Shown here in pieces: positions 1,885 to 31,281 of a stretch of DNA of 64,000 bases. A program made the position numbers and the translations under genes. The stretch is taken from positions 285,422 through 349,421 of the forward strand of contig CAZKBS010000001.1 in NCBI GenBank assembly GCA_964551435.1. Direction: 5' to 3'. Below the pieces are notes generated by a model that saw only the letters and a program-made list of their open reading frames with translations, made no database searches and was not told the origin of the DNA. Positions within the stretch are counted from its first letter, which is position 1; every line of letters starts with the position of its first letter. The stretch is from an uncultured Micavibrio sp. GTDB taxonomy: Bacteria > Pseudomonadota > Alphaproteobacteria > Micavibrionales > UBA2020.

Positions 1885-2970
<1,086 letters not shown>

Positions 2971-3700: not shown

Positions 3701-3713
3701 GTCCCGTTTTTTC

Positions 3714-5020: not shown

Positions 5021-5320
5021 TCCGTTTCAGGGCACGCGAACAACCCGTGGGCTTTCGGGGCCGACGGGACAAGGTGAAACCGCAATGATGGGGGGTTTCG
5101 TCTATCCATAGGCCGTTTCAGCGCGTGAAACAAGCAGATTAAATCACTGTGCCGTGAATTGTTCACCTTGACATAACGGGGCCGTTTTTATATTTGTTTG
5201 TGTTTATATACGCAGCTTTTGCGCGATTCCCCCGAACACCGTTATTTCTCACCGCACAGTCAAATTCAATGGCTGCTGCGTGCGTGCGGCCTGTGTTGGC
5301 GTTTTACTGAGGTGCAGGTT

Positions 5321-6649
5321 TTATTTTCCGATGCAGAAATCGCGGAATATTTTATCAAGCAGCTCTTCGACATGCACGCGGCCAGTGATACGGCCAAGCG
5401 CGCGCAGCGCCATGCGCAAATCTTCCGCCGCCAGTTCCGGCAAGGCGGCGGATACCGCACGGGTCAGATGCTCGGAAGCTTCGGTCAGCGCCGCGCGGTG
5501 ACGCTCTCTGGTCAGCGCAGGCGCGCCGCTGCCTGCGCCCAAAAGCCCTGCGATGCGCGCTGTTAAAGCCTTGAGGAAATCTTCCATACCCTGTCCTGTT
5601 CGCACGGAGAGGGGAAAACCATCAAGCGGCAGCGCCACGCCGAGGTCCGCTTTCGAAAGGGCAACGATTGTCCTGTCGTCAATCAGCGCCGCTGTCGCGG
5701 CGTCGGGCGCGGATAATGTCGCATCGAAAAGGGCGATTTTCAAATCGGCTTCCTGCGCGCGGACATGGGCGCGCCGAATGCCTTCGGCTTCTATCTGCTG
5801 CGCTGTATCGCGCAGCCCCGCGGTGTCGGCCAGAATGGCAGGATAGCCGCCAAGATCCAGATGCACTTCAATCACATCGCGCGTTGTGCCTGCCTCGTCA
5901 GATACAATCGCCGCATCGCGGCGGGCGAGTGCATTCAGCAGCGAGGATTTACCCGCGTTCGGCGCGCCGATAATTGCGACCATGACGCCGCTGCGCAAAC
6001 GCTCCCCGCGGCGGTTGTCATCGAGATGCAGGGCAATTTCGGCGCGCAGTTTTTCGATTTGCGGCAAAAGCGTACCGGAAAGACCTTGGGGCAAATCATC
6101 TTCAGGGAATTCGATATCCGCTTCCTGATGCGCAAGAATACCCGAAAGACGCGCCGTCCATCCCTGATAAACCGCCGACAGATCGCCGCCCAGCTGCGAC
6201 AGGGCTTGCAGACGCTGCGCCTCTGTTTCCGCGTCAATTAAGTCGGCAATCGCCTCCGCTTCGGTCAGGTCAAGCTTGCCATTTTCAAAAGCGCGGCGGG
6301 TAAATTCACCCGGTGCCGCATGGTCAAAACCGTCCATACGGCCCAAGGCTGCCACGAGCGATTCAATAACCGAACGGCCGCCGTGCACGTGATATTCAAC
6401 GGTATCTTCGCCTGTAAAACTGGCCGGCCCCTTGAAGTAAATTACGAGGGCGCGGTCGATGGCTTTTTGCGACTGCGGTTCGCGGAGTGTCACGTAATAA
6501 GCATGACGCGGGCGTGGGTTTTGTTTGCCGCCGAGGGTTTGCAGCGATAACAGCGCCTGCGGGCCCGAAACACGAATGACCGCAACCCCCGCGCGCATAC
6601 TGCCGGAGGCCAAAGCAAAAATCGTTTTATGCGGGTTATTTTGCGTCAT
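5321..6649 (-). CDS. mnmE: tRNA modification GTPase MnmE (TrmE)
   Basis: 442 aa with a G-domain (GAPNAGKSSLLNAL, DTAGLR) and the diagnostic C-terminal CIGK. Confidence 0.95.
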   Translation of the reverse strand: MTQNNPHKTIFALASGSMRAGVAVIRVSGPQALLSLQTLGGKQNPRPRHAYYVTLREPQSQKAIDRALVIYFKGPASFTGEDTVEYHVHGGRSVIESLVAALGRMDGFDHAAPGEFTRRAFENGKLDLTEAEAIADLIDAETEAQRLQALSQLGGDLSAVYQGWTARLSGILAHQEADIEFPEDDLPQGLSGTLLPQIEKLRAEIALHLDDNRRGERLRSGVMVAIIGAPNAGKSSLLNALARRDAAIVSDEAGTTRDVIEVHLDLGGYPAILADTAGLRDTAQQIEAEGIRRAHVRAQEADLKIALFDATLSAPDAATAALIDDRTIVALSKADLGVALPLDGFPLSVRTGQGMEDFLKALTARIAGLLGAGSGAPALTRERHRAALTEASEHLTRAVSAALPELAAEDLRMALRALGRITGRVHVEELLDKIFRDFCIGK

Positions 6650-7051
6650 TTAGCAGCAGGCCGTGCCATCCGTACCGCAGCCCGCGGGCTTTTGTTCGGC
6701 GCGCAGTTCTTTCTGGTCATTGGTCAGACGCAGACACTCGACAATTTTGCCGCCTTTGATATGACTGTCGACGATTTCGTCAATGTCGTCTTTGGTGGAG
6801 TAGGTATACCAGACGCCTTCGGGATAGATAACCATGACCGCGCCCAGCTCGCAGCGGTCAAGACAGCCTGCCATATTCACGCGTGTATTTTCGATTTTCA
6901 GCTCGCTGATGCGCGCTTTCATGTAATTGCGCAGTTCGACGCCGCCTTTTTCCTTGCAGCAGCCGCGCGGATGACCCGCCGGACGCTCGTTACCGCAGCA
7001 AAAAATATGCCGCTCGAAATAGGGTTTTTGGGCATCGCTTGGGTTGTTCAT
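6650..7051 (-). CDS. thioredoxin-like [2Fe-2S] ferredoxin family protein
   Basis: 133 aa with Cys clusters ([30 protein letters not shown]) and a ...[11 protein letters not shown]... core typical of this fold, plus an extra C-terminal CGTDGTACC. Its stop abuts the mnmE start (TAAATG). Confidence 0.75.
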
Positions 7052-7104
7052 GGCGTAATCCTTTTACTTTCGCTAAGGTAGGGCAGGAAAACCAAGGCGA
7101 CAAG

Positions 7105-9192
7105 ATGAATCTCTCCGGCAAAAACCTTTTGGGCGACGAAACCAGCCCCTATTTGCGCCAGCACAAGGACAACCCCGTGCACTGGATGCCGTGGGGTGAT
7201 GCCGCCTTCGACCGTGCCCGCGCCGAAAACAAGCCGGTTTTGCTGTCGATTGGTTATGCCGCCTGTCACTGGTGCCACGTCATGGCGCATGAAAGTTTCC
7301 AAGACCCCGCCACCGCAGATGTCATGAACAGTCTTTATGTCTGCATCAAGGTGGACCGCGAGGAACTGCCCGATGTCGACAACCTCTATCAAACCGCGCT
7401 GGCGCTGATGGGGCAGCAAGGCGGCTGGCCGCTGACGGTTTTTCTGACGCCGCAAGGCGAGGCCTTCTGGGGCGGTACGTATTTTCCGCCGCATCCGCGC
7501 CATGGCTTGCCGTCATTTCGCGAAGTATTACGCGGGGTTGCCGATTCATGGCTGCGGGAGCCGGATAAAGTCACCCATAACAGCGCCAGCATCCGCCGTG
7601 CGCTGGGCGCACTTTATACCCAAGGCGCAGGGCCCTTGCCGCTGCCCGCACAGGCGGCGCAGATTGCCGAAAAGCTTTTGCAGCGGTTTGATCCGGTTGG
7701 CGGTGGGTTTGGCGATGCGGAGTCGCCGAAGTTTCCGTGTTTACCAGCCTTGTCGTTGCTCTGGGCCTGTCATATCCGTACAGGGCAGGACAAGTACAAA
7801 TCCGCCGTTGTGCAAGCGCTAACCGCGATGTGTCAGGGTGGGCTTTACGACCATATTGGCGGGGGATTTTTTCGCTATACCGTCGACAGCGGCTGGGAAA
7901 TTCCCCATTTCGAAAAAATGCTGGCCGATAACGCACTGTTTATCGATTTGCTGACAGAAGTTTTTCGCGAAACGCAAAACCCGCTGTTTGCCGCACGCAT
8001 TGAACAGACCATCGACTGGCTTGCGCGCGAAATGGCCGTCAGCGAAGGGGGCTATAGCGCTTTCGCCAGCAGCTTGGATGCCGACAGCGTGTCGGACACG
8101 GGCGCAGCGGCAGAGGGTGCATTTTACGTCTGGCGCGCGGGGGATGTCGATGAAGCGCTCGGTGCCGATGCCGGTGATTTCCGCGCGGCCTTTGATATTT
8201 CAAAATTCGGCAACTGGCCGGGGCAGCCCGGATACAGTATCCCGAACCGCCTGTCGCAGCCGGAATGGCAGGGAGGGCAAGAACAGCGGCTGCATGCCCT
8301 TTGCCGCAAGCTACGTTTTACCCGTGAAAGCCGCTCTAAACCGGCACGCGATGACAAGGTTATATGCGATGTCAACGCGATTTTGACGGCCGCTTTGTGC
8401 CGTGCCGCTTTTGTTTTTGCACGAACGGAATGGCAAGACATGGCACTGTCCTGTTTTGAATACCTGCGGCGGTATCTGCGCGATGAGAACGGCCATCTGG
8501 CACGCAGCCGCTGCGCGCGTAGAAACGGCGCGGCGGCGCGGCTGGATGATTATGCGCATTACGGATTGGCCGCACTGGCGCTTTACGAAGCAACCCACCG
8601 CGCCGATTTTTTATCCGATGCCGCCACCGCGGCCAAATCGGTGATAGACACCTTTGCCGCAAATGGCGGCGGGTACTACATGACGCCGCCGGACAGTCTG
8701 CTGCCGCTGCGGCCACTGCATGCGGATGACAACGCCCTGCCGTCGGGCAATGCGGTTGTGGTGAAGCTGTTTTCAAGACTTGGCACTGTGACGGGCGATA
8801 TGCGCTGGCACGACGCGGCGGAAAAATGCGCCGCCAGTTTTGCCGATACCGTGGCCAGCCATATTTTCCCGCATGCCGCCCTGATTGAGGCCGCATTCGA
8901 GATGCAAACCAGTCTGAGTATCGTTATCGCAGGCGGCAGTCAGGAGGCGCGCGCCGCCCTGCACGGCGTATTGCGCAGCTTGTCTGTACCCGCGCAGGTT
9001 CTGCGACTGGAAGATGGTTCGGATATCCCGCAAGGACACCCTGCTTACGGTAAAAAAGCGGACAACGTGGCCCTTGCATGGATATGCACGGCAGGCCGGT
9101 GCCTATCGCCTGTCGCATCCGCCCAGACGTTTCGGGAAATGCTGCGCGCGGAGCGTCAGGGCACGCAGCGTCCGCCCGCCAACGACGGTTAA
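7105..9192 (+). CDS. thioredoxin-domain protein, YyaL/DUF255 family (N-terminal thioredoxin-like domain plus alpha/alpha-toroid domain)
   Basis: [18 protein letters not shown]...[15 protein letters not shown] is the DUF255 signature. The likely start is ATG 7105 (the ORF is open from 7039). Confidence 0.85.
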
Positions 9193-9303
9193 GCTGGTTC
9201 GCCTTTAAACTCTTGCGATTTAACGCTTGCGCCGCTTGACGCTCCGCCCTAAACGGGTAGTCTGTAGGACAGCATAAATACCGCAAGCAAAAGGAAAATC
9301 ATC

Positions 9304-10005
9304 ATGGCAGAGACAATCACGGTAACGGCGCATGACGGCGGTTCTTTTTCGGCTTACGTCGCGCGCCCGCAAGGTGCCGGCCCGCATCCGGCCGTTGTGG
9401 TTATCCAGGAAATTTTTGGCGTGAACGCGGTGATGCGCGGCATTTGCGACAATCTGGCGAAGGAAGGTTATATCGCCATCTGCCCGGATCTTTTCTGGCG
9501 GCAGGAACCCGGTATCCAGCTCACCGACCGCAGCGAAGCGGAATGGAAGCGCGCATTTGAACTTTTTAACGGCTTTAACGTTGACCTTGGCGTTGAAGAT
9601 CTTAAGTCCACACTGGCCGCCGCACGTAGCATCAGCGGCAGCAATGGCAAGGCGGGCACCATCGGTTACTGCCTCGGCGGCAAGCTGGCGTTTTTGATGG
9701 CAACACGCTCGGATGCCGATGCGAATGTCAGCTATTATGGCGTCGGACTGGATGCCCTACTGGACGAAGCAGGCGGCATCACCAAGCCGCTGTTGATGCA
9801 TATCGCGGAAAAAGACAAATTCGTCCCGCCTGAAGCGCAAAAGAAAATTCTGGACGCGCTTTTGAACAAATCCGGCATCACGCTGCATGTGTATCAGGGC
9901 GTTGATCATGCCTTTGCGCGTGTCGGCGGCGAACATTACGACGCGGCCATGGCAGAAACTGCCAATGACCGCACGCGCCGGCACCTCAAGGCGCATCTTG
10001 CCTAA
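9304..10005 (+). CDS. dienelactone hydrolase family protein (carboxymethylenebutenolidase-like)
   Basis: 233 aa with VVVIQEIFGVN, the nucleophile motif GYCLGG and a C-terminal HAF; this is the typical DLH layout. Confidence 0.85.
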   Translation: MAETITVTAHDGGSFSAYVARPQGAGPHPAVVVIQEIFGVNAVMRGICDNLAKEGYIAICPDLFWRQEPGIQLTDRSEAEWKRAFELFNGFNVDLGVEDLKSTLAAARSISGSNGKAGTIGYCLGGKLAFLMATRSDADANVSYYGVGLDALLDEAGGITKPLLMHIAEKDKFVPPEAQKKILDALLNKSGITLHVYQGVDHAFARVGGEHYDAAMAETANDRTRRHLKAHLA

Positions 10006-10040
10006 CAGAACAGCCCCACCCAGACGCTGACGGTTTTTTC

Positions 10041-11666
10041 ATGTCCAGACTAGAACAGCTTCCCGCACAGCCCGCCGAAGAACATTTCCAAATCCCGCAA
10101 AAGGGGGCAAAGGATCTAGCGAATATGCTGGATGGGAACGGCGTAAAGGTCGATCAGGTCCGGCTTGCCAGACACGATACGCAGGTACATCTGGTGCATG
10201 CGCAAATGCGCGTCGAGCTGAAACCGGATATGACCGTCAGCCAGCGCAGCGGCAGCCAACCCAGCGGCAAAACTATGCCCACCAAAGAAGCAGTCATGCA
10301 GGACGCTGCCGCGCAGGCGAAAACATTGGTCAGCGACGATAACGTCCAGCGTGAAATCGGCGAATTCATCGATAAAAAACCCGGACGGTCTTTTGGCGAA
10401 AGGCCTTTTCGCTTCAAGCTTGCCGCCGCGCATCAGGAATATTCGGTTATCGACAAGTGCCTGAAGTGTAACGGCGCGACGACAAACCCCTGCGGCACCT
10501 GCAGTGCCAGCGGACAAGCACCCTGTACGGGCTGCGCAGGACAGGGTGCGACGCAATGCACTGTCTGCTATGGCACCGGCCAGCAACAGCGCGGCGATGG
10601 ATCGCGCGTACCTTGCGTAAAATGCAGCGGTAGCGGCCGCAGCGTTTGCATGACTTGTCAGGGCATGAAAAATCAGCGCTGCGTCGTTTGCAACGGCAAT
10701 GGCCGCACCGCGTGTACGGAATGTGATCGAAGTGGCCACTGGACATACGTTTACGATGCGCATTGGCATTGCGAAGCGCAGTTCGAGCTGGACAGAAAAC
10801 AAACCCTTCCCGAAGTTGTCGAGGTTGTCGAACATCTGGGCATCCAGAAAACCGCGACGGAGGGGCATGCCGAAATCCTGCGGCTGATATCGGAAGTCGA
10901 AGACGACAAGCTTATTCTTCCCTATATCGCGCTGCTGCCCGTGGCGCAGGTTGAGTTTTCAATTATCGGAAAAACACATCCCGCCGTTATTGCGGGCCTG
11001 CATGGACGAATCATCGAAATCGAACCGCTAATCGACACCCTGACTAAACCGGGGGTCAGCGCCATGGTGAAGCTGTCCAAGGGCCCCATGGCGGCGGCCG
11101 CGCTGGTTGCCAGCGCCTGCCGCTTTAAAATGATACGGCAAGTTCTGGCGGGTCTTGCGCACCATAGCAAAAGCCATGTGTACCAAAAGCTGCGCCGCGA
11201 ATATCAAATTCTGATTACCGAGAAATACGCCAAAGCAACCATCCGCTACGCGGACCTTGCGCTGCTGGCATTGGCAGAGGGGCCGCGCTGGAAAGGACTT
11301 ATCGTTGGCGTTGTAGCAGCGGGCGGCATTTTTGCCGGATATTTCATGAGTCCCGTGCGTGAAACTGTGCGCGGCATGATGGTGCAGCAGCGTCTGGAAC
11401 AGCATATTCTGGCTGCCGATTTCGCGCTGTGGCTGCTGGGCTGGGGCGTAGCGGTTCTGGTCATCAAAATCTTCGCCGCAAATGCGCTCAAAAAGATTTT
11501 GCCGCAGAATGTGCAGACCGACGACCGCGGCTTGCCGGCGGCGGGGAAACAGGGATGGGTTGCACTGGGTGTAACAGCGGCAGTATGGCTCGCCGTCGCG
11601 TTTTTCTCCTCGCCCAAGCCTGAATGGATTGTCAACATTCTTCAAAAAGCCGGAATTTCGCTGTGA
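10041..11666 (+). CDS. membrane protein with an eight-fold DnaJ-type CxxCxGxG cysteine-rich zinc-finger domain
   Basis: 541 aa. Residues 140-232 (nt 10458-10736) carry CLKCNGAT, CGTCSASG, CTGCAGQG, CTVCYGTG, CVKCSGSG, CMTCQGMK, CVVCNGNG and CTECDRSG. Three predicted C-terminal TM helices follow. I recognise no other family signature. Confidence 0.7.
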   Translation: MSRLEQLPAQPAEEHFQIPQKGAKDLANMLDGNGVKVDQVRLARHDTQVHLVHAQMRVELKPDMTVSQRSGSQPSGKTMPTKEAVMQDAAAQAKTLVSDDNVQREIGEFIDKKPGRSFGERPFRFKLAAAHQEYSVIDKCLKCNGATTNPCGTCSASGQAPCTGCAGQGATQCTVCYGTGQQQRGDGSRVPCVKCSGSGRSVCMTCQGMKNQRCVVCNGNGRTACTECDRSGHWTYVYDAHWHCEAQFELDRKQTLPEVVEVVEHLGIQKTATEGHAEILRLISEVEDDKLILPYIALLPVAQVEFSIIGKTHPAVIAGLHGRIIEIEPLIDTLTKPGVSAMVKLSKGPMAAAALVASACRFKMIRQVLAGLAHHSKSHVYQKLRREYQILITEKYAKATIRYADLALLALAEGPRWKGLIVGVVAAGGIFAGYFMSPVRETVRGMMVQQRLEQHILAADFALWLLGWGVAVLVIKIFAANALKKILPQNVQTDDRGLPAAGKQGWVALGVTAAVWLAVAFFSSPKPEWIVNILQKAGISL

Positions 11667-12982
11667 TAAAACATTTTGTGACCGCCGCCGCGCTGTGCAG
11701 CCTTGTTCTGGTGTCCGGCTGCACGGGCATTTCGCGCGGCATTGCTGAAGCCGTTCTTGACCGAAAAGTCGAAGACACGCGCCAGTGCCAGATGCAGGGG
11801 CCGAAATTTGGCGGACTGCAACAAAGCCTCGACAAACATGCCAGCGACGCAAACGGCACGACCAAGGTTCTGATGGTGCATGGTATCAGCCATCACACGG
11901 CAGGCTATTCCAACCGTTTCCGCGATAGGCTGGCGGCATCACTGGGGCTTGAAATTGTCGACCCGGAGGTGAAAACCATCCAGCTGTCCGCGCCGGATAT
12001 TATGCCCACGCAGGATGGCGCGCCGCCGGAGCTTGGCACACTGCGCATCACCCGTCACAGTAGCCGCAATGACAGGCGCAGCTTGCTGTTTTATGAACTG
12101 ACATGGTCGCCGATTACGGAGGAAGAGAAAAAACTCATCCTCTATGATACCGCCAATACCGAGGGGCTGGCACGCAGCGGCATCAACCACACCATGAAGG
12201 GGTTTTTGAACGCCACTGTCCCCGACCTGCTGATTTACATGGGTGATGGCCACGATAAAATCACCGCATCGGTGCGCGAATCCGTTTGCTGGATGTTTTC
12301 CAGTGACTGGTTCGGCCTGCCCGTAGGCGGCGGGCGCTATGCCTGCCATCAGTGGCAGGGCACGGCAATGGAGCAGGTCGCAAATGATGATTATTTCTTT
12401 ATCACGCACAGCCTCGGCAGTCGCATCACGCTGGACACCATCCAGTCTTTTGTAACGGATAGCAAAAGCGCGCTGCCCGGCAGCCGCCTTCAGAGCATTC
12501 GCGGGCTGGTGCGCGATAAAGATTTCACCGTTTTCATGCTGGCAAACCAGTTGCCGCTGCTTCAGCTGGGGCGTGAGGCGCCGGCCGTCACCGGAAAGTT
12601 CCGCGAATACTGCACCGCGAACGGGGAGCTGAAAGCACAGCGTATTTTGCACCGTTTAAATATCGTCGCCTTCAGCGACCCGAACGATATCCTGTCCTAT
12701 CCGGTGCAGGACGATTTCGCGCAGCAGCATATCGACAGCCGCATCTGCCCGCGCCTTGCCAATGTCAGTATCAACGTCGCCCAGCAGCGCGACATTTTCG
12801 GCGCCGCCAGTTTTGCCGACCCGCTGACCGCGCATAACGGATATCTGGAAGATCCGCGCGTGATTTCGTTGATTACAAACGGCACGGGCGATGGCGAAAA
12901 GACGGAACCCGCGGACGGCAAATGCAGCTGGCAGGAAATGCGGCGCACGCCAAAGCCTGAAAGTCCCGCTGCGCAGCCATAA
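11663..12982 (+). CDS. lipoprotein, putative alpha/beta-fold serine hydrolase
   Basis: The GTG at 11663 overlaps the upstream stop (GTGA) and gives MIKHFVTAAALCSLVLVSGC with a lipobox (LVSGC). The alternative start is ATG 11624. A nucleophile-elbow-like motif HSLGS lies at 12407-12421, with later SDPND and AHNGY as possible Asp and His. Confidence 0.65.
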   Translation: MIKHFVTAAALCSLVLVSGCTGISRGIAEAVLDRKVEDTRQCQMQGPKFGGLQQSLDKHASDANGTTKVLMVHGISHHTAGYSNRFRDRLAASLGLEIVDPEVKTIQLSAPDIMPTQDGAPPELGTLRITRHSSRNDRRSLLFYELTWSPITEEEKKLILYDTANTEGLARSGINHTMKGFLNATVPDLLIYMGDGHDKITASVRESVCWMFSSDWFGLPVGGGRYACHQWQGTAMEQVANDDYFFITHSLGSRITLDTIQSFVTDSKSALPGSRLQSIRGLVRDKDFTVFMLANQLPLLQLGREAPAVTGKFREYCTANGELKAQRILHRLNIVAFSDPNDILSYPVQDDFAQQHIDSRICPRLANVSINVAQQRDIFGAASFADPLTAHNGYLEDPRVISLITNGTGDGEKTEPADGKCSWQEMRRTPKPESPAAQP

Positions 12983-13016
12983 AAAAACGCCCCGCTTTGA
13001 ACGGGGCGTTTTTTTA
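12981..13016. terminator. bidirectional Rho-independent terminator
   Basis: AAAAAA-ACGCCCCG-ctttgaa-CGGGGCGT-TTTTTTT, located between the convergent lipoprotein gene (stop 12982) and rho (stop 13028). Confidence 0.8.
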
Positions 13017-13027: not shown

Positions 13028-14485
13028 TTACTGGTTCATCAGTTTAAAGAACTCGTCATTGTTTTTGGTGTCTTTCATTTTATCAATCAGGAATTCGACA
13101 GCATCGACCGTGCCCATGGAGGACATGAGCTTACGCAGAATCCACATCTTGCTGAGCATGCCGTCTTCGACCAGAAGCTCTTCCTTGCGGGTACCGGATT
13201 TCTGGATGTCGATGGCGGGGAAAACGCGCTTGTCGGAAATTTTACGGTCGAGCACGATTTCGGCGTTACCCGTACCTTTGAATTCCTCGAAAATGACCTC
13301 GTCCATGCGCGAGCCAGTATCGATCAGCGCCGTCGCGATGATGGTCAGCGAGCCGCCCTGTTCGATGTTACGCGCCGCACCAAAGAAGCGCTTGGGACGT
13401 TGCAGGGCGTTGGCATCCACACCGCCCGTCAGAACTTTACCGGACGATGGCACAACCGTGTTGTACGCGCGGCCAAGGCGGGTGATGGAGTCGAGAAGAA
13501 TGACCACATCGCGCTTGTGTTCGACAAGGCGCTTGGCTTTTTCAAGCACCATCTCCGCCACCTGCACGTGACGTGCGGCAGGCTCGTCGAAGGTGGAAGA
13601 AATGACTTCGCCTTTCACGGAGCGCGCCATATCGGTCACTTCCTCGGGGCGTTCGTCAATCAGAAGAACGATCAGATAGGCGTTCGGATGGTTGGTTTCG
13701 ATGGAATTGGCGATGTTTTGCATCATCACCGTTTTACCGGTACGCGGCGGCGCCACAATCAGCGCACGCTGGCCGAAGCCAAGGGGCGATACCAGTTCGA
13801 TAACACGCTGCAGCTGCACCTGGACGGGGCCTTTGCCCTTGCGCGGCGCGCCGATGGTGCCGGCGGTCGGGTCGTCCAGTTCCAGCTTGATTTTGCGATC
13901 GGGATAAAGCGGGGTGAGGTTGTCGAAGTTGATGCGGTGACGGATCTGTTCGGGATGTTCGAAGTTGATCTGGTTCACGCGCAGAAGGGCAAAGTAGCGT
14001 TCGTTGTCTTTTGGGGCGCGGATTTCGCCTTCGACCGTATCGCCGGTACGCAGGCCAAAACGCTTGATCTGGCTGGGCGAGACGTAAATGTCATCGGGGC
14101 CCGGCAGGTAGTTTTCTTCGGGGCTACGCAGAAAGCCGAAGCCATCCTGCAAAACCTCGAGAACGCCCGAGCCGGAAATAGGAATATCCTGTTCGGCCAG
14201 TTGTTTCAGGATGGCAAACATCATTTCCTGTTTGCGCAGGGTGGAGGCGTTTTCGATACCCACTTCCTCGGCATAGGTCAAAAGCTCGGCGGGGGATTTG
14301 GCTTTCAGTTCCTGCAAATCCATCGGCTTGACGTTGGGGTCACGGCGGGCCATGGCTTCTTCTTCGGCCGCAAGCTCTTCGGGCGTCGGTTCATAGGGCT
14401 GGTTGCCGTGGCCGCCATGGCCATGATGATTGCCGTTTCCATTGCCGCCGTGGCGGGAGCCGGAATGACGTGAGCGTTTTACCAC
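13028..14485 (-). CDS. rho: transcription termination factor Rho (possible N-terminal extension)
   Basis: The canonical Rho sequence begins at [20 protein letters not shown] (ATG 14323), with a Walker A motif (PPRTGKT) and an RNA-binding domain. The frame stays open upstream. GTG 14485 has a GAAAGAG Shine-Dalgarno-like element, and ATG 14353 is a further alternative. Confidence 0.95.
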
Positions 14486-17315: not shown

Positions 17316-18374
17316 TTATGTAGCGCGCTGCCAGCTGCGGACAATCCCCACCAGCTCCGCCACATGTTCGGGTGGCGTTTCCTTGATAACGCCATGACCA
17401 AGATTGAAAACGAAAGGACGGCCTTCGGCAGCAGCCAGAATGTCGAGTGCAGCGCGGCGCATGGTATCGCCACCTGCCAGAAGTTTTTCGGGGTCCAGAT
17501 TGCCCTGCAGGCACACATGGCGCGGCATGGATGCAATATCCGCCTGCGGATCAAGACCAAGTGCGGCAATGCCCGTTTCAGCCGCATAGGCCGTGTAATG
17601 CGCGCCTGCTTGACGTGGAAAGCCTATAACGGGCACATCGGGCGCCGCCGCGTGAACCTGATCGATAACCCGCTTTGTCGGGGCAATCACCCAGTCTTGG
17701 AAATGGGCATCGGGCACAAGGCCTGCCCAGCTATCGAAAAGCTGTACGGTATCGGCGCCATGACGGATTTGCGATATCAGATAGCGTGCGGTGACATCGG
17801 AAAGCTTTAGCAAAAATTCCTGAAAGCCTCTGCTATCTGCCAAGGCCATTTCTTTCGCGCGCGCAAAACTGCCGCCACCGCGGCCATGCAGCATATAACA
17901 GGCAATCGTCCACGGCGCACCTGCAAAACCGATAAGGGTTTTATCGGCAGGCAATTCACGCTTGAGGATATCAATCGTTCGATAAACAGGCGCCAGTCTG
18001 GATTCAAAACCGGCTGTGTCCAGCCTGTCGATATCGGAAAGTTTTTCAAGCGGCGGGAGCTGCGGGCCTTCGCCTTCAATGAATGTCAAACCCTGACCGA
18101 GCGCATGCGGAATAACCAGAATATCTGAAAACAGTATAGCGGCATCAAAGTCGTAACGCCGCAGTGGCTGGAGGGTGATTTCTGCCGCCATAGAGGGGTT
18201 ATAGCAAAGATTAAGAAAAGACCCCGCCTCTGCCCGCAGAGCGCGGTATTCGGGCAGATAACGGCCTGCCTGACGCATCAGCCACAAGGGTACGCGGGGC
18301 GTGATACGGCCCTGCAGCGTTTCCAGCATGGGTTTTTCTATAACTGTTGATATCATGGCGGCCTTGCTTTGCAT
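17316..18374 (-). CDS. hemE: uroporphyrinogen decarboxylase
   Basis: PLWLMRQAGRYLPEYR and ILFSDILV motifs. The start is either ATG 18374 or ATG 18356. Confidence 0.93.
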   Translation of the reverse strand: MQSKAAMISTVIEKPMLETLQGRITPRVPLWLMRQAGRYLPEYRALRAEAGSFLNLCYNPSMAAEITLQPLRRYDFDAAILFSDILVIPHALGQGLTFIEGEGPQLPPLEKLSDIDRLDTAGFESRLAPVYRTIDILKRELPADKTLIGFAGAPWTIACYMLHGRGGGSFARAKEMALADSRGFQEFLLKLSDVTARYLISQIRHGADTVQLFDSWAGLVPDAHFQDWVIAPTKRVIDQVHAAAPDVPVIGFPRQAGAHYTAYAAETGIAALGLDPQADIASMPRHVCLQGNLDPEKLLAGGDTMRRAALDILAAAEGRPFVFNLGHGVIKETPPEHVAELVGIVRSWQRAT

Positions 18375-18884
18375 GGTTCTTTATAAGCCATGCCTTTCGC
18401 CCATCCAATATTAAAGAAAGTATATATAAGAGAATTGTAGGAGTCGTAGGCGCGTGGATGAGGGGGATAACTTCAAACAACACTATTTTTCCACAGAGCC
18501 TGTCATGCGCAATCGTCGGTTTTTTTGAAAACTTTGTGCAAAAGCCAATTAAAAACAATAAATTCAAGATGAAACGGGCTTGTGAATAACGGGGATAATT
18601 GATTATTCCGGTAAATAAACTTATCCCCGCTTTTCTATTCCGGAGTCCATGCGTGGATGGGCGGACTCATAATTCCGCAGCTTATCCCCCAAAGGCATCA
18701 CGGATCAGAAAGCCCCGCGTCTATGCACGCAGTTTTCCACACAGCTATACACAAACCATATTCCAAGCAGTCGATATCTGCATATCGCGCTCAATCTTGA
18801 GCGGTCGTTACGGCTTTTCTTCGTGCGCGAATGCCGATAGGATAAACGCTGAGCAAACGTCATCCTGAATTGGGGTAAGGGTAG
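18375..18884. other. candidate chromosomal replication origin (oriC), hemE-linked
   Basis: AT-rich 510-bp gap next to hemE. Three exact TTWTNCACA DnaA boxes: 18487-18495, 18733-18741 and 18581-18589 (reverse). Four TTATCCCC cores and two GCGTGGATG copies are also present. Origin-proximal markers (rho, mnmE, mnmG, rsmG, parAB, parS) flank it. Confidence 0.6.
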
Positions 18885-19505
18885 ATGAGCGAAGACTGGC
18901 AAAAAATAGATGTGGAGCGCACGGCGCGTATTCTGTCGGAAGTAAATCCGCATCTGGAACCTGTGCCGTTCAGCATGGAAAGCACTACTATCCGCAGCCA
19001 GCGGCTTTCGTTTTACCGTGACTATGAATTTCTGGAACTGACGGATCTTTCCGCTGTACCGGCGGTGCGCAAATATGCGATTTACAAGCCGGGCGATGTG
19101 AACGTCATCAACTGGACGAACCAGACGATATACGAAACCAACGAGAAAGCGCCGATCAATATCAATGCGCGTAACGTTGTCGAATACGTGAAGTTTTTCT
19201 TTGGCTACGTGCGCGGCCGTCATGGCCGTTTCATGATTATCGAGACAATTGACGATATCCGCTGGCAAGTTGAACCGCCGCTGCAGGGTCGCAAGGTCAT
19301 GCAGCAGATGCTGGAGCCCGTGACGCTGCTGAGCGAGGATGATGACGGGACATTCAATCTGGAAGCCTTCATGGTTTTCAAAGACTCGCTTTTCAAAACC
19401 CGCGTGCATGTGAAGCCTGACGGCCTTGTCAGCATGTCGGAGGAAGAATTGAAAATCGAAGGCATGCCTATTCTTCAGGACTCGGCGCTTCAGCACTATG
19501 CCTGA
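18885..19505 (+). CDS. hypothetical protein (206 aa), first gene right of the putative origin
   Basis: ATG preceded by GGGGTAAGGG. The amino-acid composition is balanced. There is no signal peptide and no motif I recognise. GC is lower than in the backbone. Confidence 0.6.
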   Translation: MSEDWQKIDVERTARILSEVNPHLEPVPFSMESTTIRSQRLSFYRDYEFLELTDLSAVPAVRKYAIYKPGDVNVINWTNQTIYETNEKAPININARNVVEYVKFFFGYVRGRHGRFMIIETIDDIRWQVEPPLQGRKVMQQMLEPVTLLSEDDDGTFNLEAFMVFKDSLFKTRVHVKPDGLVSMSEEELKIEGMPILQDSALQHYA

Positions 19506-20895: not shown

Positions 20896-21933
20896 ATGGC
20901 AAACGACGTTGATAAAGACAGCGACTTCAAACTGCCCAAGCCAGACAAGCAGCGTTTTCGCAGTAGTGCGGGCCGCCTCCGCAATGGCAAACACCTGTCC
21001 CACCGCGCCAGCATGGACTGGCGTTTGGACCAGCGCACCGTTTGCGACAAGCCGGACATCGCCGCTACCATCGTCTCCGTTGAAGAGCTAAAAGAAATCC
21101 TGCTGCAAAGCCGCACCGCCGAGCAGTTGATGACGGGCGATGCCGCCGCAAATCTGCATATTGTTTATGATGCGCAAGTACCTGCATCGCAATTTTACCC
21201 GCCACGCGAAGGCCGCGGTGCCACGATCACCCTGAACCCGTTCCGCCCACGCGGCGATTTGCTGAACATGCTGGCGCGCGAACTGCGCCGCAGCTGGCAA
21301 CATTTCCACGGCGCGCTGGTCAACCCGATGGATTACGAGCCGGACGAAGCTATTCTGGTCAACCGCGCGCAGCAGGCCGATGTTTTGATGGTTTCCATCA
21401 AGGTGGCGTGGGAGCTGAAACTGGGCGGCAACAGCGAAGCCTGGGATTATCTGGTCGGATCGCCGATGTCGGATGTGAGCCGTACGTTCGAAATCAAGGC
21501 GCAAACCGATTTCCGCAGCCTGAACAATGGCGAAGCGGCGCGTGCGGCCTATGATAAATTCTTCGAAGACAGCCGCACCAAGATCCATGACAAGCGCATC
21601 ATTCACCAAATGCTGCTGGATGAAGCGGGCTACATGAAATCGCAAAAAGAGCGCAGCCGTGTATCCATGGATTTGTTCAAGCGTCTGGGCGAACTGCCGT
21701 CGGGCCGCAACTATCTGTCGATGAACGCAACACGCACGCCGATGGATACCTGCTATGCGACGGTTGAAGACCGCTCCAATGCGAATTTCCTGTGGTTCAT
21801 CAAGTTCGAACGCAGCTTTCAGGAAAAAGAGCGGCAGATGATCGAAGAGTCGGTCAAGCTGTCCGCCGAAGTTGTCGACTTCGCACGCTTTGCCAGCGCG
21901 GCGCGCCGCCCGGGCAATGCTGAGCAAGCCTGA
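20896..21933 (+). CDS. hypothetical protein, zincin-like-domain paralog family, degenerate motif (RELRR)
   Basis: 345 aa, colinear with ORFs 21945, 58571 and 59620. Shared blocks are ...LHIVYD..., LNMLARELRRSWQ (21277-21291 = RELRR), QADVLMVSIKVAWEL and AARAAYDKFF. Confidence 0.65.
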   Translation: MANDVDKDSDFKLPKPDKQRFRSSAGRLRNGKHLSHRASMDWRLDQRTVCDKPDIAATIVSVEELKEILLQSRTAEQLMTGDAAANLHIVYDAQVPASQFYPPREGRGATITLNPFRPRGDLLNMLARELRRSWQHFHGALVNPMDYEPDEAILVNRAQQADVLMVSIKVAWELKLGGNSEAWDYLVGSPMSDVSRTFEIKAQTDFRSLNNGEAARAAYDKFFEDSRTKIHDKRIIHQMLLDEAGYMKSQKERSRVSMDLFKRLGELPSGRNYLSMNATRTPMDTCYATVEDRSNANFLWFIKFERSFQEKERQMIEESVKLSAEVVDFARFASAARRPGNAEQA

Positions 21934-21944
21934 AAGGACGCGCG

Positions 21945-22853
21945 ATGACGGCGGATATACCACAGCCGCCACGCATCGTTTTTCCGCTGTCGTATTTCAC
22001 CCAGAATGATGTACTGGAAATAAAAATTCCAGCGACCGCGCAGCCGCAGGCAAAAATATTTGCCGATGCCATGCAGCGTGTGTGCGGTTTTCTTTTGCAA
22101 TCACCATCGGGCCGTGCGCTGATACGCGCGGCGCTTTTGCGTGGCGTTCATATCGGCCTTGATCCGCTTTTGGAGCCGCAAACAAGTTTTTATTATCCGC
22201 TGCAAAAACGTCTGGATCTGGGTTATCAACCCGCGGCGCTGCAAACATCGCAAAAGGGTATCAGTCTTTATCTGGCCGGTATGACGGGGGGGTTGCGCCG
22301 GATATGGCAGCAAAGCCGTGCGCTGGCGCCGGATACGGCGCTGCGGCCCGAAGATTTCTTGCGCTATTGCCGTACGTTCGAAGCGGATGTTTGCGCCGTC
22401 ACGCATCTTGTCGCGTGGGAGCTGCGCGCGGCAGGCCCGTGTTTTTTCTGGCGTCACCTGCTGGCAGGCGTGGATGGCGATGTCGCGACATCTTTTGCGC
22501 GTGCGGCAAGCGCGCACCCGCGCCACCAGTTCGACGGTACCGCGCTGCGTGCGGCGTTTCTGGAGTGGTTTCAGGTGGCTGAGAGGGTGGATGCCTGCGA
22601 CCATCTGGCGCTCGAGATGATGGATATGGCGCTTTTGGGTCTGCGCGGCAGCGCCGGCGAGATTGGCCGCGCCAAGCTGGATGGCAACCGCATGAACATG
22701 CTCGGCGCTTTGCCGCAGGGTGGGAATTATTTGACCGGTATGCGTTTCCGCGCGGCACCGATGCGGCGCGGGTGCGATCCGTTTAACCGGACGCATCTAA
22801 AGCATATCCAGCACGACATCACCTATCTATCTGAAAACCAAAACAGTTTTTGA
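21945..22853 (+). CDS. hypothetical protein, zincin-like-domain paralog family, degenerate motif (GGLRR)
   Basis: 302 aa, starting 11 nt after the previous stop. Blocks are SPSGRALIRAALLRGVHIGLD, MTGGLRRIWQQ (22287-22301), EADVCAVTHLVAWEL, ALRAAFLEWF and the shared LG.LP.G.NYL. Confidence 0.6.
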   Translation: MTADIPQPPRIVFPLSYFTQNDVLEIKIPATAQPQAKIFADAMQRVCGFLLQSPSGRALIRAALLRGVHIGLDPLLEPQTSFYYPLQKRLDLGYQPAALQTSQKGISLYLAGMTGGLRRIWQQSRALAPDTALRPEDFLRYCRTFEADVCAVTHLVAWELRAAGPCFFWRHLLAGVDGDVATSFARAASAHPRHQFDGTALRAAFLEWFQVAERVDACDHLALEMMDMALLGLRGSAGEIGRAKLDGNRMNMLGALPQGGNYLTGMRFRAAPMRRGCDPFNRTHLKHIQHDITYLSENQNSF

Positions 22854-27763: not shown

Positions 27764-29650
27764 GTGATTGAAATGTCTAATAAATTCGATGTTATTGTAG
27801 TGGGTGGCGGCCATGCCGGCTGTGAAGCGGCGGCGGCATCCGCGCGTATGGGGGCAAAAACCCTGCTGCTCACGCATCGAATCGATACGATTGGCGCGAT
27901 GTCGTGCAATCCGGCCATTGGCGGCCTCGGCAAGGGGCATCTGGTGCGCGAAATTGACGCACTGGACGGTGTCATGGGCCGTGTGATTGACCAGGCGGGT
28001 ATCCAGTTTCGTATGCTGAACGCGAGTAAAGGCCCCGCCGTGCGCGGCCCCCGTGCGCAGGCGGACCGCAAACTTTACCGCAAAGCCATGCAGGCATTGC
28101 TGCTGGATTATCCGAACCTGACGGTTATCGGTGAAGGGGCGGAGGATATTCTGCGCGATGGCGCAGGTAATATCAGCGGCGTGATTTCTTCGGCAGGGAC
28201 GCAGTATGACTGCGCGGCGCTTGTTATAACGACAGGCACTTTCTTGCGCGGGGTTATTCACCGCGGCACGCATCAGCACGAAGCGGGCCGCATTGGCGAA
28301 AAGCCGTCGGTCGGACTTGCGCTTGCGCTTGAAAAATTGAACCTGCCGCTGGGACGTTTGAAAACCGGCACGCCCGCGCGTCTGGATGGCCGCACGATTA
28401 ATTGGAGCGTATGCGAAGAGCAGCCGGGGGATACACCGCCGCAGCCGTTTTCTTTTATGTCAAAAGGAATCACGGTACCGCAAATCAGCTGTTATATTAC
28501 ATATACCAACGAAATCACACATCAGGTCATCCGCGATAATCTGCATGTCGCGCCGATGTATTCAGGTCAGATTAAATCCTCCGGCCCACGTTACTGCCCG
28601 TCTATCGAAGATAAAATCGTGCGCTTCGCCGATAAAGAGCGTCACCAGATTTTCCTTGAGCCCGAGGGGCTCGATGACCACACGGTCTATCCGAACGGTA
28701 TTTCAACTTCGCTGCCCGCCGAAGTGCAGGAAGCACTGATCCGCACCATTCCGGGGCTCGAAAACGTGACGATTATCGAGCCCGGCTATGCGATTGAATA
28801 CGACTATGTCGATCCGCGCGCGCTCAAACGCACGCTGGAAGTTCATGCGGCACCCGGTCTGTTTTTGGCGGGGCAAATTAACGGCACCACAGGCTACGAA
28901 GAAGCGGGCGCGCAGGGTTTGATGGCCGGTATCAATGCCGCGCTGGTCGCGGCGGGCCGCCGTGAAGAATTCACCCTCGACCGTGCCGATGGCTATATCG
29001 GTGTGATGATTGACGACCTTGTGACCCAAGGCGTGACGGAGCCTTACCGTATGTTCACCAGCCGTGCGGAATATCGCCTGCTGCTGCGCGCGGATAACGC
29101 GGACCAGCGCCTGACGCCGCTGGGGCTGTCGATTGGCTGCGTCGGGCACGACCGCGAGGCGGCTTTCACTGAAAAGCAGCAAAAGCTCGAAGCCGCCCGT
29201 GCGCTTGTCCATAGCCTGCAAGCCCTGCCGATCGAGCTGGAGCGCCGCGGGTTCAAGGTCAATCAGGACGGCATCAAGCGCTCCGCCCATGACCTGATGC
29301 GCTATCCCGATATCAGTTTTGACAATCTGGCCGGTATCTGGCCGGAGCTGGCGGATATCGAGCATGATATCGCCGAACAAGTTGAAATCGATGCCCGCTA
29401 TGCCGGATACATCCAGCGGCAGGAGGCCGATATTCAGGCTTTCCGCCGTGATGAAAACCTCAAGCTGCCTAAAGACCTCGATTACAGCCGCGTCGGCAGC
29501 CTGTCGAATGAAATGCAGCTGAAGCTGCGCCAGCACGCGCCCGATACGCTGGGCGCGGCTTCGCGTATCCCGGGCGTGACGCCAGCGGCACTGGTGGCCC
29601 TGCTGCGTCATGTGAAACGCCGTGACCGCGAGGAGCGAGACGTTGCCTGA
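27764..29650 (+). CDS. mnmG: tRNA uridine 5-carboxymethylaminomethyl modification enzyme MnmG (GidA)
   Basis: [19 protein letters not shown] motif and the full-length GidA architecture. Start is GTG 27764 or ATG 27773. Confidence 0.97.
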
Positions 29651-30269
29651 AGAATCCCTCGATAAAGTATTCCTGCGCTATGGCTTCGGTGTTTCACGTG
29701 AAACACTGGAGGCGTTGGGCGTTTATGAATCCCTGCTGCTGAAATGGCAAAAGGCTATCAATCTGGTCGGCCCCTCGACGCTGGATGCGGTGGCGGAGCG
29801 CCATTTTTTCGACTCTGCCCAGCTGTTCCGCTTTATCCCCGATATCAATGTGCGTTTGGTCGATATGGGCTCCGGCGCAGGTTTTCCGGGGTTGGTGCTG
29901 TCGCTTCTGGGCGTCAAGGAAGTCCATTTGATTGAATCCGACGTGCGCAAGGCAACCTTCCTGCGCGAAGTTTCACGTGAAACAAAAGCGGTCGCCCATA
30001 TCCACGATACCCGTGTCGAAGATGTCAAAATCGACAAAATCGACGTTTTTACCGCCCGCGCCCTTGCGCCGCTTAAGGATCTGCTGTCTTTCATGCACCG
30101 CCTGTCTACCCCGGGGCATCCGTCGTATGGCCTGTTCATGAAGGGCATGCACTATCAGGAAGAGCTGGATAAAGCCGCCAAGCAGTGGTCTTTTGATGTC
30201 GAGATGTACCCCAGCATGACCGACTTGGCCAGCAAAGTTATTAAAATCAGTAACTTATCCAAAAAATAA
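29622..30269 (+). CDS. rsmG: 16S rRNA (guanine527-N7)-methyltransferase RsmG (GidB)
   Basis: [16 protein letters not shown] motif and a position right after mnmG. The start is ambiguous (GTG 29622 or TTG 29643, both overlapping the end of mnmG). Confidence 0.9.
29690..29705. promoter_or_regulatory. parS site 1 (TGTTTCACGTGAAACA)
   Basis: Perfect 16-bp palindrome matching the parS consensus, inside rsmG, where it reads as codons for V-S-R-E-T. Confidence 0.85.
29969..29984. promoter_or_regulatory. parS site 2 (AGTTTCACGTGAAACA)
   Basis: Carries the perfect 14-bp core GTTTCACGTGAAAC, inside rsmG, again read as V-S-R-E-T. Confidence 0.85.
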
Positions 30270-30284
30270 GGCATTTTCCGCGCC

Positions 30285-30300
30285 TGTTTCACGTGAAACA
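30285..30300. promoter_or_regulatory. parS site 3 (TGTTTCACGTGAAACA)
   Basis: Perfect 16-bp palindrome in the rsmG-parA spacer. Confidence 0.85.
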
Positions 30301-30311
30301 CGGGGTCAGCA

Positions 30312-30327
30312 GGTTTCACGTGAAACA
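30312..30327. promoter_or_regulatory. parS site 4 (GGTTTCACGTGAAACA)
   Basis: Perfect 14-bp core, 11 bp after site 3 and 46 bp upstream of the parA ATG at 30373. Confidence 0.85.
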
Positions 30328-30372
30328 TAATTTGCCTTGCCCGCAGCGGCAGATTCGCGCTATTTACTGGGC

Positions 30373-31281
30373 ATGACCCAGCCTTCAGACACATACGAAC
30401 AAACTGCGGCTTCTGCCGCTGACAAACCCGCGGACGGCGCTGCGGCCTCCCCCCGTTTGTCCGGCCCGCGCTATATTAGCATTTCGAACCAGAAAGGCGG
30501 CGTGGGCAAAACCACGACGGCTGTCAATCTGGCGACCGCCCTTGCCGCTGTTGGCAAACAGGTTTTGCTGGTTGATCTCGACCCGCAGGGCAATGCCTCG
30601 ACCGGTCTTGGTATTGACCGTGCTGACCGCGACCGTGGTTCTTACGAATTGCTGTTTAATGAAACCACGGCAGACGAAGCCGCCGCACCGACCAAGGTGC
30701 CGGGGCTTTATTGCATTCCGTCTTCCATGCACCTGTCGGGCGCGGAGATTGAGCTGATTGACGCGGATAACCGCGAATTTCGCCTGCGCGATGGCCTTGC
30801 CGCCGCCACGCGCCGCTATGACTATGTGATATTCGACTGCCCGCCCGCGCTCAACCTGCTGACGCTGAACGCGCTGGCCGCGTCCGATGGCGTGCTGGTG
30901 CCACTGCAATGCGAATTTTATGCGCTGGAGGGTCTCAGCCACCTTGTGAACACCATCGAGCGCGTGCGCGATGCTTTTAACGACAAGCTGGAGCTGCTGG
31001 GTATTGTCCTGACGATGTATGACAAACGAAATAATCTGTCAAATCAGGTTGCCGATAACGTGCGCGAATTTTTCGGTGACAAGGTTTACGACACCGTCAT
31101 CCCCCGTAACGTGCGTATATCTGAAGCGCCGTCATTCGGCCTGCCTGCGATTGTCTATGACATGGCGTGCAGCGGGTCGCAGGCGTATATCCATCTTGCG
31201 CGCGAAATGCTGAAACGTGAAAAAGCCCTTCGCGATGCTGCGCTGAAGGCCATGGCCGAAGCCCAAGGAGTCCCCGCATGA
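30373..31281 (+). CDS. parA: chromosome partitioning ATPase ParA
   Basis: Deviant Walker A motif NQKGGVGKTTTAVNLA, preceded by an N-terminal tail of about 35 aa. ATG 30373 is chosen (the ORF is open from 30337). Confidence 0.93.
   Translation: MTQPSDTYEQTAASAADKPADGAAASPRLSGPRYISISNQKGGVGKTTTAVNLATALAAVGKQVLLVDLDPQGNASTGLGIDRADRDRGSYELLFNETTADEAAAPTKVPGLYCIPSSMHLSGAEIELIDADNREFRLRDGLAAATRRYDYVIFDCPPALNLLTLNALAASDGVLVPLQCEFYALEGLSHLVNTIERVRDAFNDKLELLGIVLTMYDKRNNLSNQVADNVREFFGDKVYDTVIPRNVRISEAPSFGLPAIVYDMACSGSQAYIHLAREMLKREKALRDAALKAMAEAQGVPA

Follow-up and report, generated by a model that had tools for sequence, protein, structure and literature searches.

A DnaA-box cluster beside hemE as a probable chromosomal origin of replication in an uncultured Micavibrio-related alphaproteobacterium

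The intergenic region between hemE and an adjacent gene, here named p206, was investigated as a candidate chromosomal origin of replication (oriC) in a 64,000-nucleotide stretch of DNA from an uncultured Micavibrio sp. (contig CAZKBS010000001.1, positions 285,422 to 349,421), which is referred to throughout as the window. The left boundary of the gap is hemE (uroporphyrinogen decarboxylase; 17316..18374, minus strand; TIGR01464, E = 9e-109) and the right boundary is p206 (18885..19505, plus strand), a lineage-specific gene of 206 aa that diverges from hemE. With hemE starting at 18374, the start of its longest open reading frame (ORF), the gap covers 18375-18884 and is 510 bp long; a public gene call on a 100%-identical contig places the start at 18356, which extends the gap to 528 bp (18357-18884). 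The whole of this longer interval was taken as the candidate oriC on the basis of its GC content, its conservation and the presence of the window's sole DnaA-box cluster. An earlier inspection of the letters alone (the sequence-only reading) had described a gene-free, AT-rich gap of 510 bp at this position, and this was borne out with the longer hemE ORF, the GC content of the gap being 0.445 compared with 0.573 for the window.

DnaA boxes were found to be concentrated in the gap. The sequence-only reading had listed three matches to the consensus TTWTNCACA and gave three as their number; the sites themselves were recovered (18487-18495, 18581-18589 on the minus strand and 18733-18741), while the count was one short, a fourth match lying at 18535-18543 (minus strand, TTTTGCACA). 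These represent four of the eight matches in the window. The motif TTATCCCC is matched five times in the window, where 0.9 matches would be expected, and four of these are in the gap, at 18463-18470 and 18591-18598 on the minus strand and at 18621-18628 and 18682-18689 on the plus strand, as the sequence-only reading had placed them. The combined total is eight exact pattern matches in 528 bp. A duplication of the 9-mer GCGTGGATG had also been reported and was found again, at 18452-18460 and 18651-18659, these being two of four copies in the window. When 9-mers within two mismatches of TTATCCACA were counted, ten were located in the gap against 1.6 expected, and the densest 510-bp sliding windows for such 9-mers all fell there. 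No second box cluster was detected in the 64-kb window, nor in 9.8 kb of a 97%-identical genome which extends the sequence to the left.

For comparison, 80 hemE loci from species-representative genomes were retrieved by the hemE protein. The closest belong to uncultured alphaproteobacteria labelled Rhodospirillaceae or Micavibrio, with hemE identities of 66-82%, followed by Azospirillum and others at 50-58%. In 29 of the loci a homologue of p206 diverges from hemE over an AT-rich gap, the length of which is 1067 bp in L067 and 316-581 bp in the other 28. Locus organization is syntenic in the five relatives L001-L005, which were aligned with the window to give a six-genome alignment, and BLAST alignments cross the intergenic region in L001-L004. 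Of the matches to TTATCC[AC]CN in the 80 loci, 180 fall within 700 bp upstream of hemE (56 kb in all) and 12 in the other 896 kb, an enrichment of ∼240-fold. An unbiased count of 8-mers over 30 syntenic intergenic regions placed TTATCCCC first, with 46 copies in 22 of the 30 regions (0.4 regions expected), and TTATCCAC joint second with the overlapping TATCCCCG (40 copies, 20 of 30 regions). In the 13-kb Azospirillum loci all copies of TTATCC[AC]C lie within 1 kb upstream of hemE. Intergenic identity to the window was 0.70 (L001), 0.63 (L003) and 0.64 (L004), compared with 0.47-0.62 at flanking third codon positions, and was the higher of the two in three of four comparisons; the non-coding DNA of the gap is therefore under constraint.

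It was considered whether the motifs might have gathered in an AT-rich promoter region by chance, without any specific function, as AT-rich DNA favours near-matches to TTATCCACA. Yet none of 5000 dinucleotide-preserving shuffles of the gap matched the observed counts (shuffle means 0.04 and 0.03), and the 12 other intergenic regions of at least 150 bp in the window, some of them equally AT-rich, contain neither TTWTNCACA nor TTATCCCC. The positions of the boxes are, moreover, conserved between genomes in which third codon positions are only ∼50-60% identical. Taken together, the shuffles and the comparative data already refute a chance origin of the cluster, and virtually no weight was left on it.

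Approximately eleven DnaA boxes are arranged as two opposed arrays, one at 18453-18598 with boxes mostly on the minus strand and the other at 18621-18753 with boxes mostly on the plus strand, surrounding an inverted repeat (18584-18598 / 18621-18635). Two sorts of box can be distinguished, near-consensus (TTATTCACA and TTTTCCACA) and the TTATCCCC class. Nearest to hemE is a tandem pair on the minus strand (18453..18470), consisting of TTATCCCCC (18462-18470) and TCATCCACG (18453-18461), which faces the candidate DNA unwinding element (DUE) and is conserved in L001-L005; the second of these boxes overlaps the 18452-18460 copy of the GCGTGGATG repeat. The tandem reads TTATCCAC in L001 and L002, TTATCCCC in L003 and L004 and the weaker TATATCCCC in L005, and the same pair is present in Azospirillum L036. 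It is followed by the box TTTTCCACA (18487..18495, plus strand, one mismatch), of which the core CTGTGGAAAA is kept in L001 and L002 and CTGTG is invariant in all six aligned sequences, and by TTTTGCACA (18535..18543, minus strand), the match to TTWTNCACA noted above. A second tandem pair on the minus strand (18581..18598), TTATCCCCG (18590-18598) and TTATTCACA (18581-18589), forms a direct repeat (D1) of the first pair at a distance of 128 bp. This pair is also conserved in L001-L005, reading TTATCCACA CTTTTCACA in L005, and a central tandem TTATCCCCG TTATCCACA was found ∼217-246 nt from hemE in many relatives.

The array on the p206 side begins with the W-box-like TTATCCCCG (18621..18629, plus strand), which does not vary among the six aligned genomes. 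An inverted pair of GANTC sites flanks the weak box CCATCCACG (18651-18659). Next is TTATCCCCC (18682..18690, plus strand), whose column reads GTGGATAA in L003 and GTGGAAAA in L005, with a C/A swap at box position 7. The array is completed by a second copy of TTTTCCACA (18733..18741, plus strand), which is partly conserved, and by a degenerate box, CTATACACA (18745..18753, plus strand), whose column is occupied in L005 by a perfect TGTGGATAA and in L003 and L004 by TGTGGACA. Overall the boxes hold their alignment columns in L001-L005, and at several columns GGGGATAA in one genome corresponds to GTGGATAA in another. The sequence-only reading had treated the TTATCCCC cores as DnaA boxes. Exchange of TTATCCCC with TTATCCAC at the same columns, together with the perfect form of CTATACACA in L005, argues that this was correct and that TTATCCCC is, on the evidence of these alignments, a genuine DnaA-box variant in this clade. 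A precedent exists in the Caulobacter W-box TCCCCA, which binds DnaA weakly and has in common with the TTATCCCC class an A-to-C change at box position 7 (PMC4285127).

The two AT-rich stretches remarked on by the sequence-only reading proved to be real when duplex stability was calculated by nearest-neighbour energy. The first, beside hemE (18405..18434), is the primary DUE candidate; it has the lowest duplex stability and is nearly invariant in L001-L005. The 30-mer at 18407-18436 ties for the least stable in the 64-kb window and is located 17 bp from the tandem boxes, and an AT-rich block occurs at the matching place in most of the 29 relatives. Between this block and the tandem boxes is a stretch resembling DnaA-trios, 5'-TTG TAG GAG TCG TAG-3' on the plus strand (18435..18449; CTA CGA CTC CTA CAA on the minus strand), which contains a GANTC site at 18441-18445 and is separated from the boxes by the GC cluster GCG (18450..18452). 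Read on the minus strand towards hemE, the sequence is TTATCCCCC TCATCCACG CGC CTA CGA CTC CTA CAA TTC TCT TATATATAC TTTCTTTAATATT, so that a pair of abutting boxes is followed by a GC cluster, then by a CTA-rich stretch of 3-nt period and finally by an AT-rich block. This arrangement is found beside hemE in nearly all of the 29 relatives. An element CCTAC..(G)ACTCC.AC is conserved among them, and clean CTA repeats are seen in L059 (ACTACTACTAC), L064 and L067 (CTACTATCTACTA). The module of Azospirillum L036 reads TTATCCACA GCCATCCAC CTC ATC CTC TTC CTT ... TTTAAAAAATATAG. The boxes, their conservation, the layout of the module and the instability of the duplex are direct features of the sequence.

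In the published basal unwinding module, a single DnaA box or a tandem is followed by a spacer of ≤16 bp, by trios with the consensus 3'-GAT-5' and then by the unwinding element (PMC8287927; PMC7561715). A GC cluster precedes the trios, as in the Clostridioides difficile example 5'-CACCTACTACTATTACTACTATGA-3' (PMC7561715). The rule applied here asked for three or more DnaA-trios (3'-NAN-5') no farther than 16 bp from a DnaA box, and the orientation of box relative to trio was taken from PMC7561715 together with the Bacillus subtilis sequence. The order and orientation of the elements in the gap (abutting boxes, GC cluster, 3-nt CTA repeats, AT-rich DNA) are those of the B. subtilis and Helicobacter pylori system; the CTA repeats on the box strand represent 3'-GAT-5' on the other strand, and the weaker box is nearest to the trios, as in B. 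subtilis. Since the trios of the window are imperfect, the resemblance is graded as suggestive, and in this sense the layout appears to fit the published unwinding module. No biochemical test of the trio module in any alphaproteobacterium was found in the literature.

The second AT-rich block (18546..18575) is a secondary DUE candidate, with a stability in the lowest 0.2% of the window, and is a direct repeat (D2) of the first, a 22-nt AT-rich sequence being shared between 18410-18431 and 18548-18569. Together with the tandem boxes TTATCCCCG TTATTCACA that follow the repeat, it makes up a second unit of AT-rich DNA and tandem boxes at 18546-18598. This duplicated unit may serve as a second or auxiliary unwinding site.

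Sites for methylation are also concentrated in the gap. It contains three GANTC sites, equivalent to 5.7/kb compared with 1.4/kb for the window, and over the 80 loci the motif is 6-7 fold enriched upstream of hemE (8.7 compared with 1.4 per kb in the relatives). Two of the sites form the inverted pair GAGTCC-N14-GGACTC (18643..18668), both invariant in L001-L005, and a GAGTC...GACTC pair is located ∼290-335 nt from hemE in many relatives. The conservation of these sites suggests that the origin may be marked by methylation of the CcrM type; the Caulobacter origin (Cori) has five GANTC sites (PMC6393856). A non-box repeat, TATTCCGG, occurs at 18604..18611, within the 22-nt centre of the inverted repeat of boxes (D9, I1), and again 32 bp away at 18636..18643. 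The sequence CCGGAAT is invariant in the six genomes, and TCCGGAAT was present in 12 of the 30 intergenic regions, with 0.4 expected. The TATTCCGG pair and the GAGTCC-N14-GGACTC palindrome are conserved elements, invariant in the aligned genomes, that are not DnaA boxes.

Sites for CtrA of the form TTAA-N7-TTAA were absent from the gap, in agreement with the sequence-only reading, and numbered three in the 30 related intergenic regions, approximately the chance level. The consensus for integration host factor (IHF), WATCAANNNNTTR, was likewise found zero times in the gap and twice in the 30 regions, again at chance level. As CtrA sites in origins have not been seen outside Caulobacter, with the possible exception of Rickettsia (PMC4468827), this feature is largely restricted to Caulobacter and its absence presents no problem for an origin at the gap. 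In view of the missing CtrA and IHF consensus sequences, repression by CtrA in the manner of Caulobacter is not expected.

The position of the gap was compared with that of known origins. hemE bounds Cori, together with DUF299/COG1806, and also the predicted origins of Rickettsia, Wolbachia, Ehrlichia and Anaplasma (PMC1914354; PMC6393856), and the identity of the other boundary gene varies, COG1253 replacing COG1806/DUF299 in Wolbachia (PMC1914354). The COG1806/DUF299 (yqfL) boundary of the Cori class was not found at the gap, where p206 stands instead. In other respects Cori resembles the gap: both adjoin hemE upstream, are several hundred bp long, and have an AT-rich element on the hemE side, several GANTC (CcrM) sites, a box class with a TCCCC core, no perfect Escherichia coli boxes, and parS and parAB ∼10 kb away (PMC6393856; PMC4285127; PMC1914354). 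The differences are that the gap has no TTAA-N7-TTAA CtrA sites and no IHF consensus, that dnaA is not close, and that the boxes of the gap retain the full TTATCC 5' half, whereas Caulobacter has the G-box TGATCCACA or bare 6-mer W-boxes. In oriC of E. coli, as in the gap, strong and weak DnaA boxes form two opposed arrays, and the DUE is at one end. Unlike E. coli oriC, the gap has different flanking genes, a single GATC rather than the GATC cluster on which SeqA acts, and no IHF or Fis consensus.

A closer likeness was found in Azospirillum, in which oriC has been published between yqfL and hemE, with six DnaA boxes and a cited exact match in DoriC, and with parAB 12.4 kb and parS ∼10-12 kb from the origin (bioRxiv 10.64898/2026.09.14.751567). 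Like the gap, this origin is positioned upstream of hemE, has the tandem boxes TTATCCACA GCCATCCAC, a pyrimidine stretch with a 3-nt period followed by an AT-rich block, and a strong enrichment of GANTC, and parAB lies ∼12 kb away. It differs in its neighbour, yqfL (DUF299) rather than p206, in having one to three consensus-like boxes where the gap has eight, in a much higher GC background, and in boxes that are mostly TTATCCAC and not TTATCCCC. Given the shared position upstream of hemE and the confinement of the boxes to that position in Azospirillum, the gap corresponds in both position and architecture to a published origin.

The surrounding genes were also those associated with an origin, and rho, mnmE, mnmG, rsmG, parAB and parS, all named by the sequence-only reading, were all located in the window. 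On the left, the minus-strand genes are hemE, hemH, hemJ and rho (13028-14485) and, farther away, mnmE (5321-6649), rpmJ, mreB and mreC; a block of plus-strand genes is present at 7-13 kb. The genes do diverge from the gap as had been claimed, although the leftward run of hemE, hemH, hemJ and rho is interrupted by an M48-like gene on the plus strand between hemJ and rho. To the right the order on the plus strand is p206, an APH-family kinase, two DUF6782 genes, a thiolase, adenosine deaminase, mnmG (27764-29650), rsmG (29622-30269), parA (30337-31281), which starts 11.5 kb from the gap, and parB (31278-32309). Four parS sites (29690, 29969, 30285 and 30312; 29690..30327) are clustered within 640 bp at a distance of 11 kb from the gap, similar to the 10-12 kb given for Azospirillum, two being perfect copies of TGTTTCACGTGAAACA and two having one mismatch. 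The 3' part of rsmG contains two of the parS sites and the 67-bp spacer between rsmG and parA the other two, and the sole copy of TTATCCCC outside the gap (29833-29840) is situated among them.

The absence of dnaA from the window, also noted by the sequence-only reading, was confirmed, with no DnaA family match among the subset of window ORFs that was scanned and no DnaA signature motif in six frames. In a same-species contig of 2.09 Mb, which is 97.1% identical over 10.7 kb, mrdA, rodA, dnaN, recF and gyrB are found within 10 kb past the left end of the window, with dnaN-recF-gyrB 5-10 kb and dnaN itself ∼4.7 kb beyond it. Scans of the whole window with Rfam and for tRNA gave no matches, hence the gap is not explained by a known RNA.

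These surroundings bear on the possibility that the gap is a DnaA-binding regulatory locus, either a divergent promoter for hemE and p206 controlled by DnaA or a site that titrates or reactivates DnaA in the manner of datA or DARS, and that the true oriC is elsewhere. Such a locus would be in keeping with the need of both flanking genes for promoters in the gap, with the distance from dnaA, which makes a box cluster beside that gene possible, and with local GC skew, which has no switch at the gap. A simple sigma-70 scan of the gap, however, found no site, and parS is only 11 kb away. Eleven boxes in opposed arrays, combined with a conserved module ending in the least stable DNA, have the architecture of an origin and not of an operator, and the orthologous region of Azospirillum is a published oriC, linkage to hemE being the rule for alphaproteobacterial origins. 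A purely regulatory role was accordingly judged unlikely.

Several observations weigh against an origin at the gap. No box in the gap is a perfect TTATCCACA, and the uniqueness of the cluster refers to the window and 9.8 kb of a genome of 2.1 Mb. The trio-like stretch is imperfect, two of its five trios (CTA CGA CTC CTA CAA) being exact, and in the register that the boxes define it nowhere has three NAN trios in a row, as the published rule specifies. The remaining points arise from strand asymmetry. Raw GC skew was +0.017 to the left and +0.015 to the right, giving no switch at the gap, and the cumulative minimum fell at 4.5 kb. Coding-strand and replication effects were separated by a gene-level regression of skew at third codon positions (GC3) and four-fold sites with a scanned switch point; on the window alone, a model with no switch was preferred over a switch at 18.5 kb, and bootstrap support for the gap was 0.04-0.16. 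In favour of the gap, the polarity expected of an origin was seen on the right arm (GC3 skew of -0.04 in plus-strand genes and -0.19 in minus-strand genes); the expected reversal was missing from the left 28 kb (-0.06 plus, -0.085 minus). On adding nine genes from the 9.8-kb left extension, the gap and no-switch models tied (0.44), and the switch fitted best at -6 to +3.5 kb, which is 15-25 kb leftward of the gap, from ∼25 genes with large scatter. Two sites of a motif resembling the FtsK-orienting polar sequence (KOPS), GGGNAGGG at 19563 and 23483, are oriented wrongly for an origin at the gap.

An origin 15-25 kb to the left, either in the AT-rich interval 3234-3713 or in the dnaN-recF-gyrB region, was considered, since the best-fit switch and the cumulative minimum at 4.5 kb both fall on that side; in addition, AT content among the non-coding stretches of the window is highest in 3234-3713 (GC 0.41), and dnaN lies ∼4.7 kb past the left end. 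The DnaA boxes do not follow: the interval has no TTWTNCACA or TTATCCCC and a single 9-mer within two mismatches, the 9.8-kb extension has no box within one mismatch and no TTATCC[AC]C, and the skew fit depends on ∼25 genes with large gene-to-gene scatter. The interval 3234-3713 was rejected as an alternative origin because it has no boxes, and an origin on the left, whichever the site, was regarded as highly improbable. The interval itself is 480 bp long with a local GC content of 0.37, with rpmJ (∼3024-3161, minus strand) on one side and, on the other, a 94-aa gene that gives faint EF-hand matches, and has a hairpin resembling a bidirectional terminator at ∼3665-3695; it has no Rfam match and is near the best GC3-skew switch.

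The polarity of the KOPS-like motif was dropped as a guide to the origin. The window has only five GGGNAGGG sites, which suggest a switch between 23 and 37 kb, and in Azospirillum (L036, L039, L015, L008 and others) the motif is on one strand on both sides of the published oriC, with pooled counts of 159 versus 15 on the left and 122 versus 16 on the right (few conserved sites per genome, loci 1-13000). This implies that KOPS polarity cannot be relied on so close to an origin (within a few kb), or else that the switch in Azospirillum is not exactly at hemE. With the same polarity on both sides of the Azospirillum origin, the motif is therefore a poor guide at this scale, and as it runs opposite to the skew fit over the same interval, both signals are probably noise at this scale. 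Raw skew pooled over 19 relatives showed a step of approximately -0.05 to +0.03 at the intergenic region, which is confounded with gene direction because the genes diverge there. It is concluded that skew over 74 kb places the origin no better than to within some tens of kb, and neither confirms nor refutes the gap.

The evidence taken as a whole supports the sequence-only interpretation of a chromosomal origin, through the box cluster, its positional conservation in 29 syntenic relatives and in Azospirillum, the constraint on the non-coding DNA, the GANTC sites and the neighbouring genes. The hemE-p206 gap is very probably the DnaA-dependent chromosomal oriC of this uncultured Micavibrio-related alphaproteobacterium, and joins the known class of hemE-linked alphaproteobacterial origins as a further case. 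From the architecture we infer that DnaA would bind, unwind and initiate replication at the gap. DnaA-ATP would occupy the better boxes first and then the weaker ones cooperatively, and the array facing hemE, ending in the tandem boxes at 18453-18470, would direct DnaA onto the trio-like stretch at 18435-18449. The DnaA filament would then extend on single-stranded DNA and open the duplex at 18405-18434, after which the helicase would be loaded and forks would depart in both directions. Methylation at GANTC may mark the state of replication.

The boundary gene p206 had no sequence match in Pfam, NCBIfam or PDB, and its homologues (n = 393, ∼202 aa) are all unnamed, none with a Pfam domain. It is more highly conserved than hemE, with identities to L001 of 93% and 81% respectively, and remains ∼80% identical where hemE is ∼55%. 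The AlphaFold model was confident (predicted local distance difference test 81, predicted template modelling score 0.79), and a Foldseek search of the model against PDB gave no match (best E = 0.07, template modelling score < 0.2). In 29 genomes p206 is paired with the candidate origin and is never separated from it, in the slot that belongs to DUF299/yqfL in Caulobacter and Azospirillum. One reading joins this pairing to the duplicated unit, such that the gap would have two alternative unwinding sites and p206, in place of DUF299 as the boundary gene, would be a lineage-specific origin-binding or initiation-control factor, perhaps acting at the TATTCCGG repeats or the GAGTCC-N14-GGACTC palindrome; this combination is unlikely.

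The genes around the origin are divided between its two sides, rho and mnmE being on the left arm (minus strand, 4-13 kb from the gap) and mnmG-rsmG-parA-parB on the right arm (plus strand, 9-13 kb). In alphaproteobacteria, rho, mnmE, mnmG, rsmG, parA and parB are usually found together in a single cluster read in one direction, and their separation here has the look of an old inversion spanning the origin. Other features of the window were recorded. The DUF6782 (putative metallopeptidase) genes form two tandem pairs, one near the origin (20896-22853) and one at 58571-60744, and two ankyrin-repeat proteins are encoded at 50510-51160 and 62115-62642. Adjacent plus-strand genes of 513 and 439 aa at 10125-12982 have no Pfam match and are kept in the closest relatives, the BLAST alignments of L001, L003 and L004 spanning them. 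The minus-strand ORF at 47850-49604 encodes 584 aa, of which only residues 278-555 are covered by the LytB/IspH domain, so that the ORF has either a long N-terminal extension or a later true start.

An annotated origin, with a map of its boxes, a likely unwinding site, methylation sites and parS, would be useful for orienting replichores, for estimating growth rates from metagenome coverage and for constructing replicating vectors. The constant pairing of p206 with the origin is one feature that may be worth further work. Represented by the TTATCCCC class, the core of the Caulobacter W-box is the commonest form of box at the Micavibrio-like loci linked to p206, and it recurs in Azospirillum, where it is in the minority. 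The conservation of the module from the Micavibrio-like genomes to Azospirillum suggests that alphaproteobacterial origins may share the basal unwinding logic of Bacillus and Helicobacter.

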